Below are positions 292-12,200 of a stretch of DNA of 26,232 bases, piece by piece; the first letter of the stretch is position 1; each line of letters opens with the position of its first letter. Source of the stretch: Gemmatimonadota bacterium (lineage in GTDB: Bacteria > Gemmatimonadota > Gemmatimonadetes > Gemmatimonadales > Gemmatimonadaceae); the NCBI GenBank assembly GCA_031372565.1, contig JANMLN010000179.1:1-26232 (forward strand), read 5' to 3'. The translations under genes and the position numbers were made by a program. The notes beneath the pieces are model-generated. The model had not been told where the DNA came from, did not search any database, and saw only the letters and a list, made by a program, of their open reading frames with translations.

Positions 292-1470
292 CTACCGCCG
301 ACTCAACCCCAACACGCTCAAAAAGAAGCTCGCCAGCACCCCCTGCGCACCAAGCACCATGAGCAACGTCGCGGGAATCACCAGCCGCATCGTGCGCCCC
401 ACGTCCATCGCGCCGTACCCGGTGTTCGCCCAACGGCCGAGCGACGCCACCGCCAGCGCGAGTCCTGCGACCAGCACCACGCCGCTCACGACGAGCCCGG
501 TCTCGAGCGTCACGTAGCGATAGAGCCGATCCACGCGCGGATCTGCCGGCACCAGCCCTTCGCGCGCCGCGAACGTCTTCGTGAACACCGCAAACAGGAC
601 GCTCTGCACGCCGAGCAGCACCGCGGCCGCGCCAAAGAGCATCGTGTGCACGTCGAGGCCGAGTCCCGCGACGACGCGCGGGCCCGGCAGCAGCCACGCG
701 ACCACGATCAGGCCCGTCAGTGCGAGCAGCGCGCCCGGTACCAGGAACAGATACCGCGGGCTGTAGAGCAACAGGAACCGCAGGTGCCGCCACCCATCGC
801 GCCAACTGCGCAAGTGCGGCGCACGACTGCGACCGTCGCGATTGAGCGGCGTCGGCACTTCGCTCACGCGCAACCCGGCCAGCACGCTCCGCACGACCAT
901 CTCGCTCGCGAACTCCATCCCGGTCGTCCGCAGATCGAGCGCGACAATCGCGTCGCGGCGGAACGCCCGCAATCCGCAGTGGAAGTCCTTGACCGGCGCG
1001 CGAAAGAACAACCTCCCGATCCCGGTGAGCACCGGGTTCCCCAGGTAACGGTGCAGGGGGGGCATCGCGCCGTCGGCAATCCCGCCCGCAAACCGGTTGC
1101 CCATCACGAGATCATCGCCCGCTCGCAGCCGCTCCACGAACGGCATGAGGCCCATGAAGTCGTACGAGTCGTCGGCATCGCCCATCGCCACGAACCGGCC
1201 GCGTGCCGCGGCAATTCCGCCCATGAGCGCGGCGCCGTATCCTTTCTCCGGCACCGGAACCACGCGGGCGCCGGCGCGTTCAGCGAGGGAACGGGAGTCG
1301 TCGGTGCTCCCGTTGTCCGCGACGAGCACCTCGCCCGCGATTCCATGCTCGGCCAGAAAGCGACACGCCTTGGCCACGCACGTCGCGACCGTCTCTGCCT
1401 CGTTGAGGCACGGCATCACGATCGACAGTTCCACCGCGCCATCCGCGCGCTCTTCCCTGACTCCGGCCAT
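292..1470 (-). CDS. Glycosyltransferase family 2 (DPM1/polyprenol-phosphate glycosyltransferase-like) with C-terminal TM helices
   Basis: Motifs ELSIVMPCLNEAETV, VADNGSTD, GYGAAL, GDADDSYD (DxD) and DFHCGLRAF, plus about 4 hydrophobic C-terminal segments. Start is ATG 1470 or GTG 1434. Confidence 0.9.
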   Translation of the reverse strand: MAGVREERADGAVELSIVMPCLNEAETVATCVAKACRFLAEHGIAGEVLVADNGSTDDSRSLAERAGARVVPVPEKGYGAALMGGIAAARGRFVAMGDADDSYDFMGLMPFVERLRAGDDLVMGNRFAGGIADGAMPPLHRYLGNPVLTGIGRLFFRAPVKDFHCGLRAFRRDAIVALDLRTTGMEFASEMVVRSVLAGLRVSEVPTPLNRDGRSRAPHLRSWRDGWRHLRFLLLYSPRYLFLVPGALLALTGLIVVAWLLPGPRVVAGLGLDVHTMLFGAAAVLLGVQSVLFAVFTKTFAAREGLVPADPRVDRLYRYVTLETGLVVSGVVLVAGLALAVASLGRWANTGYGAMDVGRTMRLVIPATLLMVLGAQGVLASFFLSVLGLSRR

Positions 1471-1933
1471 GCCCGAACTTAACCGCGTCGCTCCCGACTT
1501 CTCGCTCCCCGCCGACGATGGCAGCACGGTCCGCCTCAAGACCCTGCGCGGCCAGCCCGTTGTCCTCTACTTCTACCCGAAGGACGACACCACGGGGTGC
1601 ACGGCCCAAGCCTGCGAATTTCGCGACCTGTTCCCGCGCTTCAAGAAGTCCAAGGCGGTGATCCTCGGCGTCTCTCCCGACCCGGTCAAGAGCCACGTCA
1701 AGTTCAAGACCAAGTACGATCTGCCCTTCGCGCTGCTCGCCGACGAACTGCACGAAGTCTGCGAGTTGTACGGCGTCTGGAAGGAGAAGTCGATGTACGG
1801 GCGCAAGTACATGGGGGTCGAGCGCTCCACCTTTCTCATCGATGCCAAGGGGAAGCTCGCCAAGGCGTGGATCAAGGTGACGCCCAAGGGACATGCCGAC
1901 GAGGTGGCGGCCGCGATCGCGGAGCTCGAATAG
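1469..1933 (+). CDS. bcp: Thioredoxin-dependent peroxiredoxin Bcp/PrxQ
   Basis: APDFSL...VVLYFYPKDDTTGCTAQACEFRD (PxxxTxxC with CxxxxC) and YMGVERSTFLID. The start was moved to ATG 1469 (154 aa). Confidence 0.95.
   Translation: MPELNRVAPDFSLPADDGSTVRLKTLRGQPVVLYFYPKDDTTGCTAQACEFRDLFPRFKKSKAVILGVSPDPVKSHVKFKTKYDLPFALLADELHEVCELYGVWKEKSMYGRKYMGVERSTFLIDAKGKLAKAWIKVTPKGHADEVAAAIAELE
1476..1481 (-). promoter_or_regulatory. Putative -10 box TAAGTT for the GT2 gene, inside bcp
   Basis: Minus strand reads TAAGTT-cgggc-ATG(1470). The same hexamer occurs in promoter candidates at 14081 and 14299. Confidence 0.45.
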
Positions 1934-4327: not shown

Positions 4328-4840
4328 ATGCGCATCGCGATTCTCACCGTGTCGGACGCGCTCGCCTCGGGCGCGCGTCGCGATGACCGCTCGGGCGATG
4401 CCATCGCGACCTGGGCCGCCGTGCACGATCACGAGGTCGTGGCGCGTGCCGCCGTACCCGACGGCACCGTGGAGATCGTGCGGCACCTGCTCCGGTGGTG
4501 TGACGCCGACATGGCCGATGTCGTGTTCACCACGGGGGGGACCGGGGTGTCACCGCGCGACGTGACCCCGGAGGCCACGCAGGCCGTCCTCGATGTCGAG
4601 ATGCCGGGATTGGTCGAGCTCATGCGCATCCCGAAGCTCGCGACCTTTCCCCGTGCGGCGCTCTCGCGCGCGCGTGCGGGGGTGCGGCGTCGTGCCCTCA
4701 TCGTCAACCTCCCCGGCGCCCCGTCCGGCGTGACCGAAGGGCTCGGCGCGCTTGCGTCGATCCTCGCGCACGCCAGCCGGATCGCGCGGGGCGAGTCCAC
4801 CGATCACTCCGGCGCGCTCGATGCGCCATCGCTCCGATGA
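4328..4840 (+). CDS. mog: MogA/MoaB-family molybdenum cofactor biosynthesis protein
   Basis: ILTVSD...DRSG, TTGGTGVSPRDVTPEAT, LSRARAG and LIVNLPG. Confidence 0.9.
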   Translation: MRIAILTVSDALASGARRDDRSGDAIATWAAVHDHEVVARAAVPDGTVEIVRHLLRWCDADMADVVFTTGGTGVSPRDVTPEATQAVLDVEMPGLVELMRIPKLATFPRAALSRARAGVRRRALIVNLPGAPSGVTEGLGALASILAHASRIARGESTDHSGALDAPSLR

Positions 4841-6420
4841 AAGTCCTGATCACGCTCACCGATCTCGAGCCGGCCGTGCGGCTCAACGCCCTGCTCGAGC
4901 AGCAGGGGGGCGGGACGATCACGGAGCTGGTCTCCCCGATGGACGACGCGCGCGCCGCGCTGCGCCGGCTCGGTCCCGACGTCGTCGTGATCACCGGCGC
5001 CCTGATGGACGCGCAGCACGTGGCGCTGGTGCGAGAGCTGCTGTGGGACGAGGTGCCGGTCATCGGCCTGGCCGACATCCTCGACGATGACATCAACCTC
5101 CGGCTGCACGGCGTCGGCTATGCCGAAGTCCTGGGCAAGCCGGTGCTCCCCGCCGACATCGCCGCCGTGGTGCGGCGGGTGGCCGAACGACGGGAGGTGG
5201 CCCAGTCGACGGGGCTGGTGGGGGACAGTCAGGCCATTCGCCAGGTGCTGGTCAAGATCGAGCAGATGGCACCGGTCACGAGCACCGTGCTGATCGAGGG
5301 CGAGAGTGGGACGGGCAAGGAGTTGGTGGCCCGGGCCATCCACCAGCGGAGTCCGCGCAAGGCCAAGCCGTTCATCGCGGTCAACGTGGGGGCCCTGCCG
5401 GAGACGTTGCTCGAGAGCGAACTGTTCGGCCACGAGAAGGGGGCGTTTACGGGGGCGGCCGAGCGCCGGTTGGGCCGGTTCGAGCTGGCGCACACGGGGA
5501 CGTTGTTTCTCGACGAGATCGGCGAGATCCCGACGTCGACGCAGGTCAAGCTGCTGCGCGTGCTCGAGGAGCGGGAAGTGACGCGCGTCGGCGGCACGGC
5601 GGCCATTCCGGTGGATGTGCGCGTCGTGGCGGCCACGAACCGGCCGTTGCGCGAGCATGTGGAGCGGGGGCACTTCCGCGCCGACCTGTACTACCGGCTG
5701 AACGTGCTCGGGATCTACCTGCCGCCGCTGCGCGAGCGGCGCGATGACATCCCGCTCCTGGTGCGCCGGTTCGTTCGCGAGGTGACCGCTCGGCACGACC
5801 GCGCCTTTCACGGGATTTCGGGGGACGCGATCGAGATGCTCGTGCACTACCCGTGGCCGGGCAATGTGCGCGAGCTCAAGAACCTGATCGAGAGCATGGT
5901 GGTGCTCGCTCCGGGGCGGGAGATTCGCGCGGACGACATTCCGGCGTCCATCCGGGAGGGGGCAGGGGCGCGGTTCCTGCCGGTGCATGTGGGGCCGGTC
6001 GTTCGCGGCGCGGAGGGGTCGCAGGGGCGCGAACTCGAGTTCATCGTGCGCTCCCTGGTCGAGCTCAAGCTGCAGGTCGAGGAGCTGCGTCGGCGCGCGG
6101 ATGACGATCGCGAGCGTGCCGCCCGGAAGGATGGGTCGTCTGGTGGGGTGACTGGGGCCGGGTGGGTGGGGGAGCTGCGTGCCGTCGGCACCGGTGGGGC
6201 GGGGGGGATCGAGGCGCCCGGGGCGCCGCCGCCGCCGAACGTGGTGACGGTGACCCCGGGGATGACGATGGCCGAGATCGAGCGCGCGTCGATCGAGGCA
6301 GCGCTCAAGGAGACGCGGGGGAACAGGCGGAAGGCGGCCGAAATGCTCGGGATCGGGGAGCGGACGATGTATAGAAAGTTGAAGGAGTACCATCTCGACG
6401 GCGAGGTCGAACAGGACTAA
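4837..6420 (+). CDS. Sigma-54-dependent enhancer-binding transcriptional activator (degenerate REC - AAA+ - Fis HTH)
   Basis: Walker A GESGTGKE, ESELFGHEKGAFTGA, Walker B LFLDEI, FRADLYYRLNV, WPGNVREL and C-terminal GNRRKAAEMLGIGERTMYRKL. ATGA overlap with mog. Confidence 0.95.
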   Translation: MKVLITLTDLEPAVRLNALLEQQGGGTITELVSPMDDARAALRRLGPDVVVITGALMDAQHVALVRELLWDEVPVIGLADILDDDINLRLHGVGYAEVLGKPVLPADIAAVVRRVAERREVAQSTGLVGDSQAIRQVLVKIEQMAPVTSTVLIEGESGTGKELVARAIHQRSPRKAKPFIAVNVGALPETLLESELFGHEKGAFTGAAERRLGRFELAHTGTLFLDEIGEIPTSTQVKLLRVLEEREVTRVGGTAAIPVDVRVVAATNRPLREHVERGHFRADLYYRLNVLGIYLPPLRERRDDIPLLVRRFVREVTARHDRAFHGISGDAIEMLVHYPWPGNVRELKNLIESMVVLAPGREIRADDIPASIREGAGARFLPVHVGPVVRGAEGSQGRELEFIVRSLVELKLQVEELRRRADDDRERAARKDGSSGGVTGAGWVGELRAVGTGGAGGIEAPGAPPPPNVVTVTPGMTMAEIERASIEAALKETRGNRRKAAEMLGIGERTMYRKLKEYHLDGEVEQD

Positions 6421-6440
6421 ATGACCGAAAACACCCTATC

Positions 6441-6469
6441 TTGCGCCTGTAGGAGTCTCCCTACATATT
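6441..6469 (+). promoter_or_regulatory. Putative sigma70-type promoter with internal inverted repeat
   Basis: TTGCGC-N17-CATATT. The palindrome TGTAGG-N6-CCTACA (6448-6465) overlaps the spacer and -10. Confidence 0.45.
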
Positions 6470-6556
6470 CGCGCCGTCTCATAACGCGTCAGTTGCGTTA
6501 CGTGGCGCGTAACGGTCGATTCGTCTGCTGTTTTCATCTGCGAGCGGAGGTGAGCC

Positions 6557-7297
6557 ATGGCGTTGCCGGCTGATGCGGGCGGCAAGTCGGTGTCACCGAT
6601 CGCCGGGAGTGTGTTTCCGGTGTCCGCGGCGGAGGAGTTGCTCTCGTCGTTGGCGGGGGTGATGAGTTCGCGGATCGTGACGACGGGGAACGGGCAGTTG
6701 GAGGCGATCCACGTGCTCACGAGCGCGGAGATCCCGCCGAAGCAGACGGTGCGGAATGTCGAGAGTGCGCTGATGGCGCACTTCGGGATGAAGGTTGACC
6801 ACCGGAAGATCTCGGTCGCGACGTCGGTGGAACCCGCAAAGGCGTGGAAGTCGGGTGGTGGTGGCGGGAGTGGGAGCGGGGCGTTGGAGGCTGAGGAGTT
6901 GGGGGTGCGTCGGCGGCTGTACTTCGAGGATGTCGAGGTGCGTCGCTCGCGGACCAAGGGAGTGACGGTGCGTGTGACGTTGCGCCGTGGTGACGAGGTG
7001 GTGGCGGGTGAGGCGGAGGGGGTCGAGCACGACCGCGCCTGGATCGATCTGGCGGCGCAGGCGGCGCTCTCGGCGATCGGCAAGGTGGACGGGTCCGACG
7101 CGGTGCCGCTGGCCTTGTATGGTGCGAAGCTGGTGGAGGCGTTCGAGCGCGAGTTCGTGTTCGTGGGGGTGACGGTCAAGCTCGGGCGCGACACGATGTT
7201 GTTGACGGGCAGTTGCGAGGTTCGGGAGAGTTCGGAGACGGCGAGCGTGCTGGCCGTGCTGGATGCGACGAACAGATGGATGACGCACCACGCGTGA
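6557..7297 (+). CDS. Hypothetical protein: small N-terminal domain, Gly/Ser linker, LeuA allosteric (regulatory) domain-like C-terminus
   Basis: RBS GGAGGTGA 4 nt before ATG. N-domain IHVL...KQTVRNVESAL...DHRKISVA. C-domain has two beta-beta-beta-alpha units ending AAQAALSAI and ASVLAVLDATNR, like the isopropylmalate synthase regulatory domain. Confidence 0.75.
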   Translation: MALPADAGGKSVSPIAGSVFPVSAAEELLSSLAGVMSSRIVTTGNGQLEAIHVLTSAEIPPKQTVRNVESALMAHFGMKVDHRKISVATSVEPAKAWKSGGGGGSGSGALEAEELGVRRRLYFEDVEVRRSRTKGVTVRVTLRRGDEVVAGEAEGVEHDRAWIDLAAQAALSAIGKVDGSDAVPLALYGAKLVEAFEREFVFVGVTVKLGRDTMLLTGSCEVRESSETASVLAVLDATNRWMTHHA

Positions 7298-7338
7298 GCT
7301 GACGTGCAGTAGTTCGAACAGAAAGGGATGATCCTGAT

Positions 7339-7363
7339 GAGCCTGGCCGACGCGGTCAGGCTC
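7339..7363 (+). terminator. Stem-loop (weak terminator or mRNA-stabilising hairpin)
   Basis: GAGCCTGGCCG-ACG-CGGTCAGGCTC, 11 bp with one G-U and only a weak U tract. Confidence 0.5.
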
Positions 7364-7444
7364 TCGGTGTCTCAGGACCAGCGATCTGGCTTCCTTTCAC
7401 GAGGTTCCACAAGCGCGGAGAAGTACAGCAGAAATGTGACCCCC

Positions 7445-7571
7445 CGTCCTCAGCTCTGAAGCGGAGATGAGCTGAGTACGAGGCCAACTCGGGCCAGCAC
7501 GACGAGCGGAGCCCACCCTTGGTGGTAGCACGGACCTGCGAGCGCAGGCGTGACTCCAACGAAGGAGGTGA
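7445..7571 (+). promoter_or_regulatory. Structured 5' leader upstream of the small-peptide RBS
   Basis: Hairpins CTCAGCTC/GAGCTGAG (7449-7476), CCACC-CTT-GGTGG (7513-7525) and CACG-GA-CCTGC-GAGC-GCAGG-CGTG (7529-7552). The latter two are closed by GGAG/CTCC. RBS AAGGAGGTGA at 7562-7571. Confidence 0.4.
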
Positions 7572-7577
7572 CGCGCA

Positions 7578-7649
7578 ATGACGTTCTTTTTCGGTCTGAT
7601 TGCCAGCTGTATCGGCAAGATGTTTGGAGACAGCAGCGTGTGGTTGTAG
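7578..7649 (+). CDS. Small 23-aa peptide MTFFFGLIASCIGKMFGDSSVWL (below ORF-track cutoff)
   Basis: Extended Shine-Dalgarno AAGGAGGTGA 6 nt upstream of ATG, clean frame to TAG, located directly upstream of the HD-GYP gene. Confidence 0.7.
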   Translation: MTFFFGLIASCIGKMFGDSSVWL

Positions 7650-7695
7650 CTGTGGGCGGGGGTCCACACACCATGAAGAACGCAAATCCCAAATC

Positions 7696-9039
7696 GTGAA
7701 TCCGATTCCGAAGCTACTGAAGTTCGTAGCAACCACCACCATTCTCGCGGTAGTCTCGGCGTGCTTCCTCGCCGTGACCTCACCCCAAGTGTCAAGCGAG
7801 CAGGTCTCGGCAGCGGTCGTCTTCGCTCTCGTCGGGCTCCTCTCGCATGCGTTGCTTTACCGCACCACGAGCAGCGTTGGTGGGACGGTATCATTTATAC
7901 CGTTCCTTGCAGGGGTCGTTGTTGCGCCAAACTGGTTTACGGTCATGACGATCGCCGCCGCCGCGGCGCTCGTAGAGATTCAATCAAAGAGAGCCGCAAT
8001 CAAGGCTGTCTTCAACACGTCGCAGTTTGCCTTGGCTGCCAGCCTAGCGGGTTTGGTGTTCAACGGCTTTGGTGGAGTGACACCACTGGATCATCAGGCT
8101 TTGGATTGGGACATGGCGATGCCTCTGGTGCTGGCGTTCGCTGCATATCTGCTTGTCAACAAGGTTGCCGTAAGCGCAGTCATTGGCATCGCCGAGGGAG
8201 GCGACGGTTGGTCGGTGTGGCGTCGGATTACAGATACCGCAATTCTCTACGACGTTCTCTCGCTTCCTTTCGCCTACGGCTACGCCAAAGTCTTCGCCGA
8301 TCTGGGCTGGCAATGGGTAATCGCGCTCTCTTTGCCTTTGCTCGGTGTGCGGCAACTGTATCGGACTAACTGGCAACTTCAAAGGTCGAGTGAAGAGCTC
8401 CTTCAGCTCATCGTTAACGCGATCGAAGCACGTGACCCGTACACTTCGGGGCATTCGCGACGAGTCGCCCACTATGCTACGATAATCTCAAGATCGGTCG
8501 GCATGCCGAAGAAGACTGTGGACCGCATCTTTACCGCGGCCATCCTCCACGATGTCGGAAAAATTCACGAAGATTTCGCCCCAATCTTGAGGAAGCCTTC
8601 CGCACTTACGGATGAAGAACGGGCGACAATTGAGAGCCATTCCGACCGCGGGGCCCAGCTGGTCGCCACCGTCTCGCAGCTTGAGGATATCGTTCCTGTG
8701 GTCCGGCACCATCACGAGAGGTGGGATGGGCGCGGATATCCAGGCGGCCTCGCGGGTCAGGATATCCCACTGGGATCTCGAGTGATCATGTTGGCGGACA
8801 CGATCGATGCAATGACATCTGATCGGCCTTATCGCCCGGCGCTTCCTAGGGAAGTTGTTCTCGCCGAGCTTGACCGTATGTCGGGCATCCAGTTCGACCC
8901 CGAGATAACGAGAAAGTTTGTGACGACAACGGGTCCTGATGAACTGTTTGAGGCGGTCGCGTCGTATCACGCGGACGACTTGCCTGAACGCGACGTGACG
9001 CGACTTTTCGATCGCGCCAAGCGAGTTCGCACTGCCTGA
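7696..9039 (+). CDS. Membrane-bound HD-GYP cyclic-dinucleotide phosphodiesterase (multi-TM sensor + HD-GYP)
   Basis: About 7-8 hydrophobic segments, then EARDPYTSGHSRRV, LHDVGKI, HHHERWDGRGYP and LADTIDAMTSDRPYR. Start at GTG 7696 is inferred; the ORF track uses TTG 7600. Confidence 0.92.
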   Translation: MNPIPKLLKFVATTTILAVVSACFLAVTSPQVSSEQVSAAVVFALVGLLSHALLYRTTSSVGGTVSFIPFLAGVVVAPNWFTVMTIAAAAALVEIQSKRAAIKAVFNTSQFALAASLAGLVFNGFGGVTPLDHQALDWDMAMPLVLAFAAYLLVNKVAVSAVIGIAEGGDGWSVWRRITDTAILYDVLSLPFAYGYAKVFADLGWQWVIALSLPLLGVRQLYRTNWQLQRSSEELLQLIVNAIEARDPYTSGHSRRVAHYATIISRSVGMPKKTVDRIFTAAILHDVGKIHEDFAPILRKPSALTDEERATIESHSDRGAQLVATVSQLEDIVPVVRHHHERWDGRGYPGGLAGQDIPLGSRVIMLADTIDAMTSDRPYRPALPREVVLAELDRMSGIQFDPEITRKFVTTTGPDELFEAVASYHADDLPERDVTRLFDRAKRVRTA

Positions 9040-9089
9040 CCCGCGAGTTCAGGTGCAACGCGATTGTGATCTGTTGATTTCGATCGCCC

Positions 9090-12000
9090 CTAAATTCGAA
9101 CCTTGGTCGCCCGCTTTCGTAGCTGCTCGATGGTCGTCGCTAGTTCGGTGGTAGCGGGTCCGATCTCGAACCGGTGTGCGGACAGCCTCAGTAGGAACTT
9201 CAGCGCCCTCGTCGACCCTACTCGACTTTCAATGGCGCGCGCAGCGGTCGCTTGGACGAAGTCAGCACGGGGCCACGACCTAAATCTGAACGCGTAAGCG
9301 ACCAGCATCCGCGCTTCATCAATCTCGATGTGACGCCCGGCGGCGCTCAGCTTCGCGGCAGCGCGGGTAGCGAGAACATTTCCTCGGCTTCGGTGGTCCG
9401 ACGGAAGTTTACCGTGCAGCAGAGTATCTACCGCTGGATGCACAGTGTGCTCAAGCTCCCCCTTCGTCTGTAAATGACAGCGGGCTATCACGAGTGCGAG
9501 CGATGTCGCATCGATTCGCAACTCGCCTGTGGCTTGATGAGTATGCAACTGTGCCATCAATGGCACGGTCCGCGCTATATCGCCGACATCTAGATGAAAG
9601 TTGATCTGAGCTGCGAGCACCAATCCTGTCATTTGGTGAGCCCCTAACTCGCGAAGACGATCCATGCATTCGGCAAAGAAATCGGTAGCACGCGGGCGGT
9701 CGCCGATCGAACGCAATACAACGGTGGCATCCATGAGGGCAGAGAGAAGTGGAACGGGTGCACCAAGGCGCCTCGCTAAGGCGATGCGCTGATCTGCGAG
9801 GAGTCGAGCCGACTGCAGATCGCCCGAGTAGTATGCGAGTAGCATCTGAGCCTTGAGCAGGCTATCGCTGCGAAAGTCATCTGAGTCGGTCTCCTTGCTT
9901 CGGAGCGAGAGGAGTGGCCCCATTGCACTCCTAGCTAGGTGCTGATCTGCCAAAACAACGGTGTTGATCAGGACCTGCGCACGAATCGGACTGTCTGATC
10001 TTGTTGCTTTCGCCAAGGCTACTGCACGCGGCAGATCATTGACAGTGTGGGGAAGATCATTGGTGCGTGACCAGATGAGCATCACCTCAGCAAACGTCGC
10101 GAGTTCGCTGTTGTTGTCGCCACCCGCCGTAAGCGAGGCGAGCTCGGTAGCATGCGTGCGAACTAAATCGCGGTCACGCTCAGAGAACGCGATCTCAACA
10201 GACAGCTTCTTGGCGAGAGAGAGGAAGGCGCCGTCGCTCGCGGACGCGCTCTCTTGGATCTCACGCACAACGGACCAAGCAGAGTTAGTAGACCCAGCAA
10301 GCATGAGGCGCCGTGCGGTCTGTTGAATCAACTCCACCCCCCGCTGCTCCATGTTCGCCGCGCGCAGGTGCTTCGCACACGCCACCAACACCCCCGCGTC
10401 CGTCCCCTCGCGCGCGACCGGCTCCAGCACGTCCGCGATATACCGGTGCAGCAACACCACCGCCGCCTTGCTCGCCCGCCCCACCGCCCGCTGCGCGATG
10501 ATCCCGTGGCGCACCAGCGGCGCATCGACCAGCGTCTCGAGAAAGCCGGCCGCATGTAACTGGTCCAAGGCCTCGAGCAGGACATCGCGCGCGATCTGCA
10601 TCACGGACTCGATTCGACCCACCGTCGCGTGGCGACCCAGAAGGGCGCACACCTGCAGGCACCGCATCGCGGAGGGCACGATCGTGTCGAGGCGCTGCTC
10701 CATCAACGCGTCAAGGCTGGGAGGCAACTCGTTCAGGTCGCCCGTGCTGAGCCAATGCGTCGCCAGTGTGTGCACGTAGAGTGGGTTACCATTGGACACC
10801 CCAGCCGCGCGTCGCAGCAGCGCCGGTCGGTCCGCCGGAGGCTGACCATGCACCAGCGCGCCCAGCAGTTCGAAGCTCTCCTCTTCCGTGAGCGGCGGTA
10901 CGCGGACGACCAGAGCGCGCGAGCCACCCGACGCCATCTTTGGCAACTGCTCCTTCTGCTGCGCGGCGAATACCCACGCGACCCGGCGCGACGCCGCGTG
11001 CTCCACCGCCATCGAGTAGAAGGGAATGCTCGACGGGTCCAGCCACTGCGCATCGTCCACGGCAATCAGCAGCGGCCGCTCTGAGCTCACGGCATCGATC
11101 AGGTCGAGCACCGAACTGCGCAGCAACCGGTGCCGATACGCCGAGTCCTCCGGTCCCTGAGGCAGCGGCTCGTCGGCAGGATCGAGCTTGGTGAGGCGCA
11201 TCAACGCCCGATGCGCCGCGGGATCCACCCCCAACGCGCCGGGCTGCATCAACATCGTGCTCGTCATCACCTCGAGTGCGCACAGCGGTCGGTCCGGCCA
11301 GGTCGGTTCGCACGAGATCGTCACCAACGACCACCCCTCGAGCGCGGCCAGCGCGTTCATCTCGCGCACCAGGCGCGTCTTTCCCACGCCGGGCTCGCCC
11401 CACATGCTGACGATCGTGCCGACCTGGTCGCGCGCACGCCGCATGTGGTGAGCGAACGATTCCAGCATCGCGTCTCGACCGACCAACAACTTCCAGTCGG
11501 CCCGGTTGCGCACCGCTGCCGGCATCCGCTCGGTGATTCTCCGCTTGAGCAACGTCGGTTGGATGGCCAACTCCCCCGGCTTGCCGTCCATGGCCTCGAG
11601 GTACCGGTCGAGGAGCGCGACCGCCTCGGCCTTGTTCCCCTGAACGGCCCGCCCTTCTGCAAGGGTCAGTGTGGCCTCCTCGTTCAGCGGGTCGATGCCG
11701 AGGATCGCCTGCGCGTACGCCACGGCCCGCATCCACTGTGTGCGCATCCGGGTCTCTCGCAGTCCCGCCATCAGCCGTTCCGTCAGGCGACGGTGCACGC
11801 GGTCGCGCCAACGCTCGATGAGCGACGCGAAGGGCGCCGAGACGCGCGGCTCATACCCGTCAAGGAAGCTCCAGTGCTGCGTCAAGTCGGTCGGCGCTCC
11901 GTCAACCGCCAACCGTTCATCCACATCCCAGACCACCCCCGGCGGTAACGAGAGATGCTCACCGCGTGTCTCGATGAGCAGTCCGAGCTGGCGCAACTTG

Positions 12001-12200
12001 TACGCGGTCTGGCGCAGATTGTGGGCCGAACGCTCACGCGGCGCCTCTGGCCAGAGCAGTTCGCAGGCGCTGGCCCGTGACAGTGGCCGAGGGACGCTCT
12101 CGAGCAGCGCCAAGGTCAGGGCAAAAACGATCTCGTGGTCAGGCCCGACCTCCCGCTCGCTCAGGATGAGTCGTGGGGGGCCCAGCGTCTCGATGCGCAT
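9090..12200 (-). CDS. SARP/AfsR-like large regulator: wHTH-BTAD, STAND AAA ATPase, helical/TPR-like sensor
   Basis: LSRASACELLWPE...NLRQTAYKLR (wHTH), DPLNEEA (BTAD), LVGR, Walker A GEPGVGKT, Walker B LLIAVDDAQWLD, GNPLYV (GxP) and a helical C-terminus. Confidence 0.88.
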   Translation of the reverse strand: MRIETLGPPRLILSEREVGPDHEIVFALTLALLESVPRPLSRASACELLWPEAPRERSAHNLRQTAYKLRQLGLLIETRGEHLSLPPGVVWDVDERLAVDGAPTDLTQHWSFLDGYEPRVSAPFASLIERWRDRVHRRLTERLMAGLRETRMRTQWMRAVAYAQAILGIDPLNEEATLTLAEGRAVQGNKAEAVALLDRYLEAMDGKPGELAIQPTLLKRRITERMPAAVRNRADWKLLVGRDAMLESFAHHMRRARDQVGTIVSMWGEPGVGKTRLVREMNALAALEGWSLVTISCEPTWPDRPLCALEVMTSTMLMQPGALGVDPAAHRALMRLTKLDPADEPLPQGPEDSAYRHRLLRSSVLDLIDAVSSERPLLIAVDDAQWLDPSSIPFYSMAVEHAASRRVAWVFAAQQKEQLPKMASGGSRALVVRVPPLTEEESFELLGALVHGQPPADRPALLRRAAGVSNGNPLYVHTLATHWLSTGDLNELPPSLDALMEQRLDTIVPSAMRCLQVCALLGRHATVGRIESVMQIARDVLLEALDQLHAAGFLETLVDAPLVRHGIIAQRAVGRASKAAVVLLHRYIADVLEPVAREGTDAGVLVACAKHLRAANMEQRGVELIQQTARRLMLAGSTNSAWSVVREIQESASASDGAFLSLAKKLSVEIAFSERDRDLVRTHATELASLTAGGDNNSELATFAEVMLIWSRTNDLPHTVNDLPRAVALAKATRSDSPIRAQVLINTVVLADQHLARSAMGPLLSLRSKETDSDDFRSDSLLKAQMLLAYYSGDLQSARLLADQRIALARRLGAPVPLLSALMDATVVLRSIGDRPRATDFFAECMDRLRELGAHQMTGLVLAAQINFHLDVGDIARTVPLMAQLHTHQATGELRIDATSLALVIARCHLQTKGELEHTVHPAVDTLLHGKLPSDHRSRGNVLATRAAAKLSAAGRHIEIDEARMLVAYAFRFRSWPRADFVQATAARAIESRVGSTRALKFLLRLSAHRFEIGPATTELATTIEQLRKRATKVRI

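Follow-up and report, generated by a model that had tools for sequence, protein, structure and literature searches.

Small bacterial membrane proteins can act as regulators or operon-encoded small subunits of larger membrane proteins, as in the MgrB-PhoQ, KdpF, AcrZ and CydX types. Regulatory leader peptides, and coupling of translation by an RNA structure that masks a ribosome-binding site (RBS), are known from TnaC, the erm and cat leaders and the attenuators, and the TnaC type is defined by a Trp at a fixed distance from a C-terminal Pro and stop codon, together with Rho- or terminator-dependent read-through. Short hydrophobic peptide pheromones, such as those of the SHP/Rgg and ComS/ComR pairs, are encoded beside their receptors, which are cytoplasmic regulators in Firmicutes. 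For the cyclic di-GMP (c-di-GMP) network of C. difficile, the available part of one report (PMC13724677) describes the CD1980.2 family, unannotated small membrane-associated proteins of 58 amino acids (aa) that follow known class I c-di-GMP riboswitches and affect sporulation. Here we analyze a stretch of 26,232 nucleotides (nt) from a Gemmatimonadota bacterium (assembly GCA_031372565.1, contig JANMLN010000179.1; the whole stretch is called the window below), in which a 23-codon open reading frame (ORF) lies directly before the gene of a membrane-bound HD-GYP protein with a MASE9 sensor domain. The available part of the preprint by Galperin and Chou (10.1101/2021.11.05.467447), who described MASE9, argues that the ligand of this domain binds within the membrane, and reports that HdgA of Streptomyces venezuelae, the one characterized member, showed no major role in c-di-GMP metabolism; in the main text of that preprint, so far as available, the terms 'upstream', 'peptide' and 'small protein' occur 0 times each. 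Full-text searching of the literature turned up no account of HD-GYP genes preceded by a small ORF or leader, and a paper on peptides that ribosomes make and that are modified after translation (RiPPs) and HD domains (PMC12186529) and a Streptomyces preprint proved irrelevant to the small ORF.

There is very little doubt that the small ORF is real and functionally tied to the HD-GYP gene, and it is probably an overlooked part of a MASE9-HD-GYP signaling system; the structure of the leader RNA in which it lies can be accepted with high confidence. The original prediction, made from the letters of the window, had placed a 23-codon ORF with a strong RBS 46 nt upstream of a protein with several transmembrane segments and an intact HD-GYP domain. 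The ORF, behind the Shine-Dalgarno (SD) sequence AAGGAGG, was borne out, and so was the spacing, the gap being 7650-7695. The interpretation that came with it, of a peptide overlooked by annotation that would be a ligand or small membrane subunit of the sensor domain, is supported in part, namely for the ORF itself and for its link to MASE9. The frame of the HD-GYP gene is open from 7600, and GTG 7696 was taken as its start, as 31 aligned relatives agree with it in their N-termini and in a length of ~440 aa; it is this start that gives a gap of 46 nt. The RBS AAGGAGGTGA, at 7562-7571, is real and the sole exact copy in the window (with one mismatch allowed there are 3 matches against 0.68 expected), but it is base-paired in the conserved leader RNA and not free. 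The downstream protein has about eight hydrophobic segments in residues 1-222, an HD dyad at 285 and HHERWDGRGYP at 339, in agreement with the prediction. Pfam MASE9 (PF20972) matches residues 43-191, N-terminal to the output domain, at 31.3 bits against a cut-off of 24.3, and HD_5 matches residues 238-404 at 123.5 bits against a curated cut-off of 27.2 (E 1e-35); the columns of the HD dyad and of HHExxDGxGYP are invariant in an alignment of 32 sequences. Judged by its Pfam match and intact motifs, the product is a predicted HD-GYP phosphodiesterase that would hydrolyze c-di-GMP (or cGAMP), and the combination of MASE9, HD_5 and both motifs makes it a member of the MASE9-HD-GYP group as presented in the available part of the preprint (10.1101/2021.11.05.467447).

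ORFs of 15-35 aa with an SD and an ATG are common (273 in 0.94 Mb of comparison DNA, both strands), so the 23-codon frame taken alone is not above chance; it is raised above chance by its conservation. Species-representative genomes were scanned with an alignment of 32 relatives, giving at least 80 listed loci (at least 600 stretches), and Pfam searches of 80 encoded proteins separated the MASE9-type proteins from those with GGDEF, GAF, REC, Cache/HAMP or other inputs. An upstream ORF was scored when it had 12-45 aa, an SD-like motif upstream, an end in W* or Wx*, and a stop at most 200 nt before the HD-GYP start; MASE9-type loci were counted when they had at least 100 nt of upstream sequence, and in the other HD-GYP loci the start of the longest ORF served as the anchor. 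Among the loci listed, such an ORF is present in 37 of 41 of the MASE9-type and in 0 of 32 with other sensor inputs, so that a scan upstream of homologues, proposed together with the original prediction, came out positive. Both strands of all loci, with the true cases included, give a background of 96 matches in 944,538 nt, which comes to 0.02 for each equivalent stretch. Two of the four misses are variant forms, L021 (MTYVKSVVSSAFVGWIWAT, with W third from the end) and L022 (MLQLLAFLFTAVARLFFADGMLAL), and the other two, L037 and L059, have no such ORF upstream and also lack a Pfam MASE9 match. Seven loci were left out of the count: L010 has a short upstream sequence, where the contig edge still shows an ORF end ...SQDWT*; L018, L029, L031 and L038 have 5'-truncated genes; and L035 and L039 have short or broken HD-GYP frames. 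The upstream ORF of L035 reads MKILIALLAALAGNISWN, and that of L039 has its W five residues before the end. Both loci (L039, 2499-2592 and 2998-3972; L035, 2256-2312 and 2914-3711) keep leader and small ORF before an HD-GYP frame that is without a membrane domain or interrupted, and may be copies in decay or faults of the assembly.

Going by the titles of their records, most carriers are Gemmatimonadota; the others are Tissierellales, Eubacteriales, Bacillota, Vallitalea, Actinomycetota, Candidatus Eisenbacteria and a few metagenome-assembled genomes binned elsewhere. The two Actinomycetota loci, L044 and L065, keep the peptide and MASE9-HD-GYP genes and lack both the AGCG-box leader described below and the gene of a 246-aa protein that otherwise precedes it, which makes the pairing of peptide and enzyme the most persistent of these associations. 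A small membrane peptide that is unrelated to the enzyme and merely co-transcribed with it, be it a toxin-like membrane-perturbing product or a general membrane factor, would agree with the fact that short hydrophobic peptides are common, but the association is specific to MASE9 and recurs in at least four phylum-level groups with differing neighbors, and this account is very unlikely.

The small ORF evolves as a coding sequence. A signature of selection on codons, which had been suggested as a check, was found in 8 of 8 close pairs, where the proportion of nonsynonymous differences (pN) is below that of synonymous ones (pS), with small counts per pair; examples are 0.13 against 0.70 (upstream copy of L044/L065), 0.16 against 0.36 (L041/L047) and 0.22 against 0.64 (L008/L016). 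The closest relatives (65-81% identity) are represented as proteins only. Mean hydropathy (grand average of hydropathy, GRAVY) is 1.11 for the ORF frame; the two remaining sense frames have -0.06 and -0.16, antisense -1.37 and the background SD+ATG ORFs -0.24 (n=273). In 36 of 40 cases no other sense frame is as hydrophobic as that of the ORF. The G+C content at codon positions 1, 2 and 3 is 0.51, 0.45 and 0.65. Nucleotide identity within the ORF is as low as 0.47 among the nine 23-codon forms; each of the three stop codons occurs, any constraint on the residue that follows W is lacking, and at the conserved position L002 starts with TTG and L057 with GTG. One might hold that the frame is untranslated and a by-product of a structured non-coding leader, since it lies wholly within an RNA domain closed by a long-range helix (P1, below), its SD is paired, and UGG could be an RNA element. 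This is extremely unlikely in view of pN below pS, the frame-specific hydrophobicity, the tandem paralogues described below, the use of ATG, TTG and GTG at the same place and the low nucleotide identity; in addition, the relation of W to the stop holds although P1, the next RNA element, lies anywhere from 0 to ~40 nt past the stop, which would argue against UGG as an RNA signal only.

The peptide is 16-35 aa long with a mode of 23 (40 forms). The conserved C-terminal motif expected from the window sequence is indeed found, with W last or penultimate in 38 of 40 forms and D or E at W-4 in 20 of the 32 Gemmatimonadota-type ORFs, where the acidic residue usually follows G, A or S, as in GDSSVW of the window; D18 and W22 would share one helix face. 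None of the 8 forms that are not of Gemmatimonadota type has an acidic residue at W-4. L041, L044, L047 and L065, with L048 and L056 as close variants, instead have a basic N-terminus, a hydrophobic run of ~18 residues and ASGAG-xx-W. Both Actinomycetota loci carry tandem paralogous small ORFs, for example MSRLLGKFPRVAFYALLLVSLALASGAGRKWS followed by MKKVLFRNRYVFGLFVLLAFALASGAGVKWS. The window peptide matched 0 Pfam-A or NCBIfam families at E<=10, and 10 of its relatives gave only sub-threshold, chance-level rows. The proposed co-folding of the peptide with MASE9 residues 1-235 scored 0.15 against a mark of 0.32, for peptides of fewer than 30 aa a result outside the calibration of the tool and one for which controls were absent, so that it counts neither for nor against binding.

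These features bear on the possibility that the C-terminal 4-8 residues, ending in W, are released as an exported pheromone and sensed by MASE9, which would make a quorum or autocrine peptide-to-c-di-GMP circuit. Genes of short hydrophobic peptide pheromones typically adjoin the receptor gene, and the Bacillota and Actinomycetota forms, with a basic n-region, a hydrophobic core and ASGAG followed by 3-5 residues with W, look by eye like signal peptides (basic n-region, core, small-x-small; L041, L044, L047, L048, L056 and L065); a resemblance to the PhrK and AimP precursors in NCBIfam is weak (E 0.12-0.15, far below cut-off). However, neither the window peptide nor most Gemmatimonadota forms, many of which begin with ME- or MQ-, display the signal-peptide features, and no processing or export gene is conserved nearby (six window proteins covered). 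The periplasmic loops of MASE9 are, moreover, short and poorly conserved according to the available part of the preprint (10.1101/2021.11.05.467447), and export of a pheromone is quite improbable.

The leader RNA in front of the small ORF is built from near-invariant blocks: a C-run ~130-150 nt before the ATG, at least one (G/U)AGCG(G/A)AGC box per leader, GG(A/G)GGUGACGC directly before the ATG, and a G-run just past the stop. The sequence GGTGACGCNNNATG occurs once per locus in 15 loci, every time at the start of the small ORF. In the minimum free energy (MFE) fold of the window, GCG 7506-7508 pairs with CGC 7572-7574, GCC 7511-7513 with GGU 7567-7569, and CCUU 7517-7520 with AAGG 7562-7565, so that the entire SD and spacer are engaged, with tandem G.A between the blocks. 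RNAalifold predicts the GCC/GGU and CC/GG pairs, mostly invariant, from 17 and from 21 relatives of the window's subgroup. A hairpin between the two strands varies in stem sequence among relatives, where MAFFT leaves it unaligned, and is kept as a hairpin by eye; the equivalents of a second, more upstream hairpin are capped by GAGC or GAAGC in relatives, again by eye. A second subgroup of Gemmatimonadota has a three-way junction in which GAGCG(GA)GCGUC pairs with GACGCUC and the AUG, and ACUCC with the SD, with an AUAGCGA-loop hairpin between the helices; 94.1% of cells are paired and 7 pairs are changed on both sides, while 0 of 500 shuffles reach the observed value and slid controls give 32-47%. 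The masking helix of Bacillota is AUAUAGCCU/AGGCUAUAU around a hairpin with an AUAGCGR loop. As judged from these sequences, the masking of SD and spacer by a helix thus persists from phylum to phylum although the strands that form it differ, and the covariation, strong in the second subgroup and between phyla, is what an SD-sequestering, riboswitch-like leader for translational control should display.

The leader matches no described RNA family. Against Rfam 15, c-di-GMP-I and -II riboswitches included, the window had 0 matches at the gathering score, the permissive E<=10 brought up just 4 rows of chance level in 7250-7760, and the leaders of 9 relatives were without a match at E<=1. Neither sigma-70-like promoters nor intrinsic terminators were found in 7200-7750, and the z-score of the whole-leader fold of the window is unremarkable (-1.41). 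Covariance model R1, built on the second subgroup, recovers its 11 training sequences and L039, and within the window's subgroup only L011 (E 0.07). The (G/U)AGCG(G/A)AGC boxes and AUAGCGR loops recur 2-4 times per leader (for example at 7460-7466 and 7504-7513 of the window and at 2640-2680 of L022), giving (G/U)AG triplets 2 nt apart, a spacing reminiscent of binding sites for multimeric RNA-binding proteins.

P1, a covarying long-range helix, forms between the C-run and the G-run, with pairs 7436-7438/7665-7667 and 7441-7449/7654-7662 in the MFE fold of the window, and is predicted likewise by RNAalifold on 17 relatives; the G-run of its 3' strand is conserved in alignment A3. Over 35 loci the mean duplex energy is -32.6 kcal/mol for cognate strands against -22.9 kcal/mol for non-cognate ones and -20.8 kcal/mol across subgroups, and 0 of 5000 permutations reach the observed mean; these energies come from narrow windows, as wide-window duplex folding over-extended the helices. 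By eye the P1 sequences differ by group (CCCCCG/CGGGGG, GUCCCC/GGGGAC, GGGGCCCC/GGGGCC, GACCGGC/GCCGGUC and GUCGAC/GUCGAC). The 3' strand begins 0-4 nt past the small-ORF stop in most Gemmatimonadota loci, so that a ribosome finishing the small ORF would have to melt P1.

The explanation we prefer is a composite of the RNA and peptide evidence, and we give it about an even chance of being right. The 72-nt ORF and the gene of the MASE9-HD-GYP phosphodiesterase would make up a two-gene unit in which the ORF is the conserved first cistron, with a hydrophobic, Trp-terminated micropeptide as its product. The conserved 5' box would mask the small-ORF SD and spacer, and the peptide would be made only once this helix opens, with the 246-aa protein or a small molecule as candidate triggers. 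P1 would close the whole leader domain, and its melting by the ribosome at the small-ORF stop would free the start region of the HD-GYP gene, a translational coupling that would tie the amounts of peptide and phosphodiesterase together; for coupling through P1 the chances appear evenly balanced. The released peptide would insert in the membrane as one short helix and act on MASE9 as an accessory subunit or intramembrane ligand, tuning c-di-GMP hydrolysis. Action in trans on MASE9 is a tentative proposal, just short of an even chance; in its favor are the ASGAG-xx-W forms with a basic N-terminus, the leader-less tandem copies, and the view that the MASE9 ligand binds within the membrane.

With the SD paired in a conserved leader and the stop abutting a long-range helix, a cis-regulatory role would be at least part of the story, and it could be the whole of it. 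A purely cis-acting leader peptide would open P1 by being translated, or by stalling at the Trp codon or stop, and so switch HD-GYP translation on; the signal might be the supply of Trp or tRNA-Trp or a cue in the ribosome tunnel, and the released peptide would have no function of its own. Besides the closeness of stop and P1, such a leader would account for an SD and start hidden in a conserved helix, in the manner of translational riboswitches and attenuators, and for the rarity of an SD core at HD-GYP starts of Gemmatimonadota type (2 of 32; small ORFs, 23 of 32). However, a W that is last, penultimate or third from the end (L021), with a free final residue, is loose for a readout by the peptidyl-transferase center. 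In Bacillota, moreover, at least 9-12 nt separate the stop from the P1 3' strand and the HD-GYP gene comes with a GGAGG of its own, the Actinomycetota keep tandem peptide genes without the AGCG-box leader, and frame-specific hydrophobicity and basic N-termini are not needed by a stalling peptide. A purely cis-acting peptide is the main and a serious rival, if rather unlikely.

Several observations count against the composite explanation. The conservation of the peptide is anchored C-terminally, in W and in D/E at W-4, its N-terminal length is variable, and its stop abuts a regulatory helix, the pattern expected of an arrest or leader peptide; as Trp has one codon, the conservation of UGG is unassignable by codon usage to the peptide or the RNA level. 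The hydrophobic run of the window peptide, ~16 residues, is broken by K14, and no K or R precedes position 14, so that a basic N-terminus is lacking. Mean column identity of the peptide alignment is 18%, and a putative homology between the D/E-x3-W forms of Gemmatimonadota and the ASGAG-xx-W forms of Bacillota and Actinomycetota rests on position, hydrophobicity and the terminal W. The second-subgroup covariance model does not match the window, and the subgroups therefore share an architecture and sequence boxes and do not form one alignable family. P1 of the window ends 28 nt before GTG 7696, farther than in most relatives, and several other window genes also lack an SD core, so that its scarcity at HD-GYP starts is weak support for coupling.

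The features of the unit are collected in Table 1.

Table 1. Coordinates of the small ORF, its leader and the neighboring genes (positions of the window, except where a locus is named; rows in order of position).
Feature	Position	Strand	Remarks
Uncharacterized 246-aa protein gene	6557..7297	+	Directly upstream of leader and small ORF
P1, 5' strand (GUG..CCCCCGUCC)	7436..7449	+	MFE, RNAalifold; duplex calculation extends to 7453
Local hairpin region, AGCGGAG box in loop, CUCAGCUC/GAGCUGAG by eye	7449..7476	+	MFE draws a shorter variant
Anti-SD strand in conserved box GAGCGGAGCC(C/A)ACC	7506..7520	+	Box invariant in alignment A3
Variable hairpin, GAGC loop 7540-7543	7522..7560	+	Between anti-SD strand and SD; MFE fold
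SD AAGGAGG and spacer UGACGC	7562..7574	+	Near-invariant GG(A/G)GGUGACGC; paired in predicted structures
Small ORF, 23 aa, MTFFFGLIASCIGKMFGDSSVWL	7578..7649	+	ATG 7578, stop TAG 7647-7649; D18 and W22 form the conserved D-x3-W
P1, 3' strand (GGGCGGGGG..CAC)	7654..7667	+	4 nt past stop; 0 nt with CUG 7650-7652 extension
8-codon mini-ORF MKNANPKS*, status uncertain	7673..7699	+	TGA overlaps GTG 7696 as GTGA
MASE9 and HD-GYP protein, 447 aa	7696..9039 (GTG start)	+	Profile matches, alignment of relatives
Tandem W-ended small ORFs before MASE9-HD-GYP	L044:2371-2469, 2567-2662; L065:1226-1327, 1416-1514		

The mini-ORF between the small ORF and the HD-GYP gene has its ATG 11 nt past the G-run, the usual spacing of HD-GYP starts in relatives; it could be a second coupling step or the trace of an indel at the 5' end of the HD-GYP gene, and an AAATCC/GAATCC repeat lies near it. 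A protein identical to the 447-aa product is on a database record from another contig. One database record of the MASE9-HD-GYP protein is shortened N-terminally to 364 aa, and database gene calls disagree at the 5' end of the family (P0004, P0027, P0035, P0062 and P0067). In four of these (P0027, P0035, P0062 and P0067) the extension is the leader read in another frame (REVTRN..., GGDAKW...), and the idea that they are natural fusions of peptide and enzyme was rejected. The G+C content is 0.57-0.58 in 8001-10000, which holds the HD-GYP gene and the 3' end of its neighbor, against 0.64-0.73 in most of the window.

The conserved gene order runs from a sigma-54-type activator through the 246-aa protein, the leader that holds the small ORF and the MASE9-HD-GYP gene to an AAA_16/TPR protein; the activator (4837-6420) and the 1036-aa AAA_16/TPR protein (9090-12200, minus strand) are syntenic in many Gemmatimonadota loci. 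No sigma-54 promoter consensus was found in 6400-7700, and elsewhere in the window there are 7 matches with at most 2 mismatches against 10.4 expected. The 246-aa protein, with no sequence match in Pfam, NCBIfam or PDB, belongs to the conserved unit as a third partner: by tblastn its gene is directly upstream in 31 loci, with 27-31% identity in the Bacillota ones (L041:2114-2737, L047:1670-2314, L048:1971-2615 and others). Its AlphaFold2 model (mean predicted local distance difference test score, pLDDT, 85.9) shows an alpha-beta domain at the N-terminus, a linker that is disordered and a pair of beta-beta-beta-alpha repeats; Foldseek matches it best to the regulatory domains of LeuA/citramalate synthase, which bind amino acids (E 5e-5), and more weakly to double-stranded RNA-binding domains. 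In P0123 (820 aa) the whole module is fused behind Fe-hydrogenase-like and GGDEF domains, which hints that the module itself reads or controls c-di-GMP, and the 246-aa protein is a candidate effector of the leader. The start of its own gene is preceded by GAGCGGAGGTGAGCC (6536-6559), which resembles the leader box and the small-ORF SD region.

A bolder proposal is that the four parts, 246-aa protein (as a ligand-binding protein resembling the LeuA regulatory domain), AGCG-box leader, micropeptide and MASE9-HD-GYP enzyme, form a previously undescribed c-di-GMP control module in which the protein or RNA gates a peptide that is the cognate ligand of MASE9, intramembrane or extracellular. We consider this unlikely; if true, it would be the first pair of a peptide and its receptor that leads to c-di-GMP, spread over several phyla. 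MASE9 is without a known signal, and a hard-wired peptide partner is a testable candidate for what this widespread domain reads or needs, which makes the control of membrane HD-GYP enzymes accessible to simple genetics in Gemmatimonas, clostridial or Streptomyces relatives that can be cultivated. The locus also adds a small-protein family apparently skipped by gene callers, a structured leader RNA absent from Rfam and an uncharacterized co-conserved protein.

In comparison with the systems described at the outset, the locus resembles MgrB-PhoQ, KdpF, AcrZ and CydX in that a very short, putatively single-helix hydrophobic product, apparently overlooked by annotation, is tied genetically to a polytopic membrane protein; it differs from them in that the candidate partner is a MASE9 c-di-GMP phosphodiesterase and the peptide is shorter (16-35 aa) with a terminal Trp. 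With TnaC and the erm and cat leaders it shares a short ORF in a structured leader, a C-terminal anchoring with Trp, and a stop that adjoins a helix involving the initiation region of the downstream gene. Unlike in those leaders, there is no C-terminal Pro (0 of 40 peptides) and no terminator (0 terminator-like sites in 7200-7750), the position of the W codon is unfixed, the hydrophobicity is of membrane type, and the peptide is kept even without the leader (L044, L065). The pheromones of the SHP/Rgg and ComS/ComR pairs are like the peptide in how small and hydrophobic they are, in having Trp and an acidic residue close to the C-terminus, and in a place adjoining a candidate receptor gene, but the neighbor here is a membrane enzyme, mostly of Gemmatimonadota, and no export or processing genes are seen among the six window proteins covered. 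The CD1980.2 family, so far as the available part of its report describes it (PMC13724677), is the nearest published idea and, as the present peptide would be, a small membrane-type product behind a structured leader in a c-di-GMP network; it is restricted to C. difficile, whereas the present leader has no Rfam match and the ORF precedes a phosphodiesterase gene, and the two have no relation to each other in sequence, in size or in context. A sensor with a small membrane protein next to it and an RBS-masking leader with an upstream ORF are thus known kinds of element, and it is their combination, and the partner, that are new.

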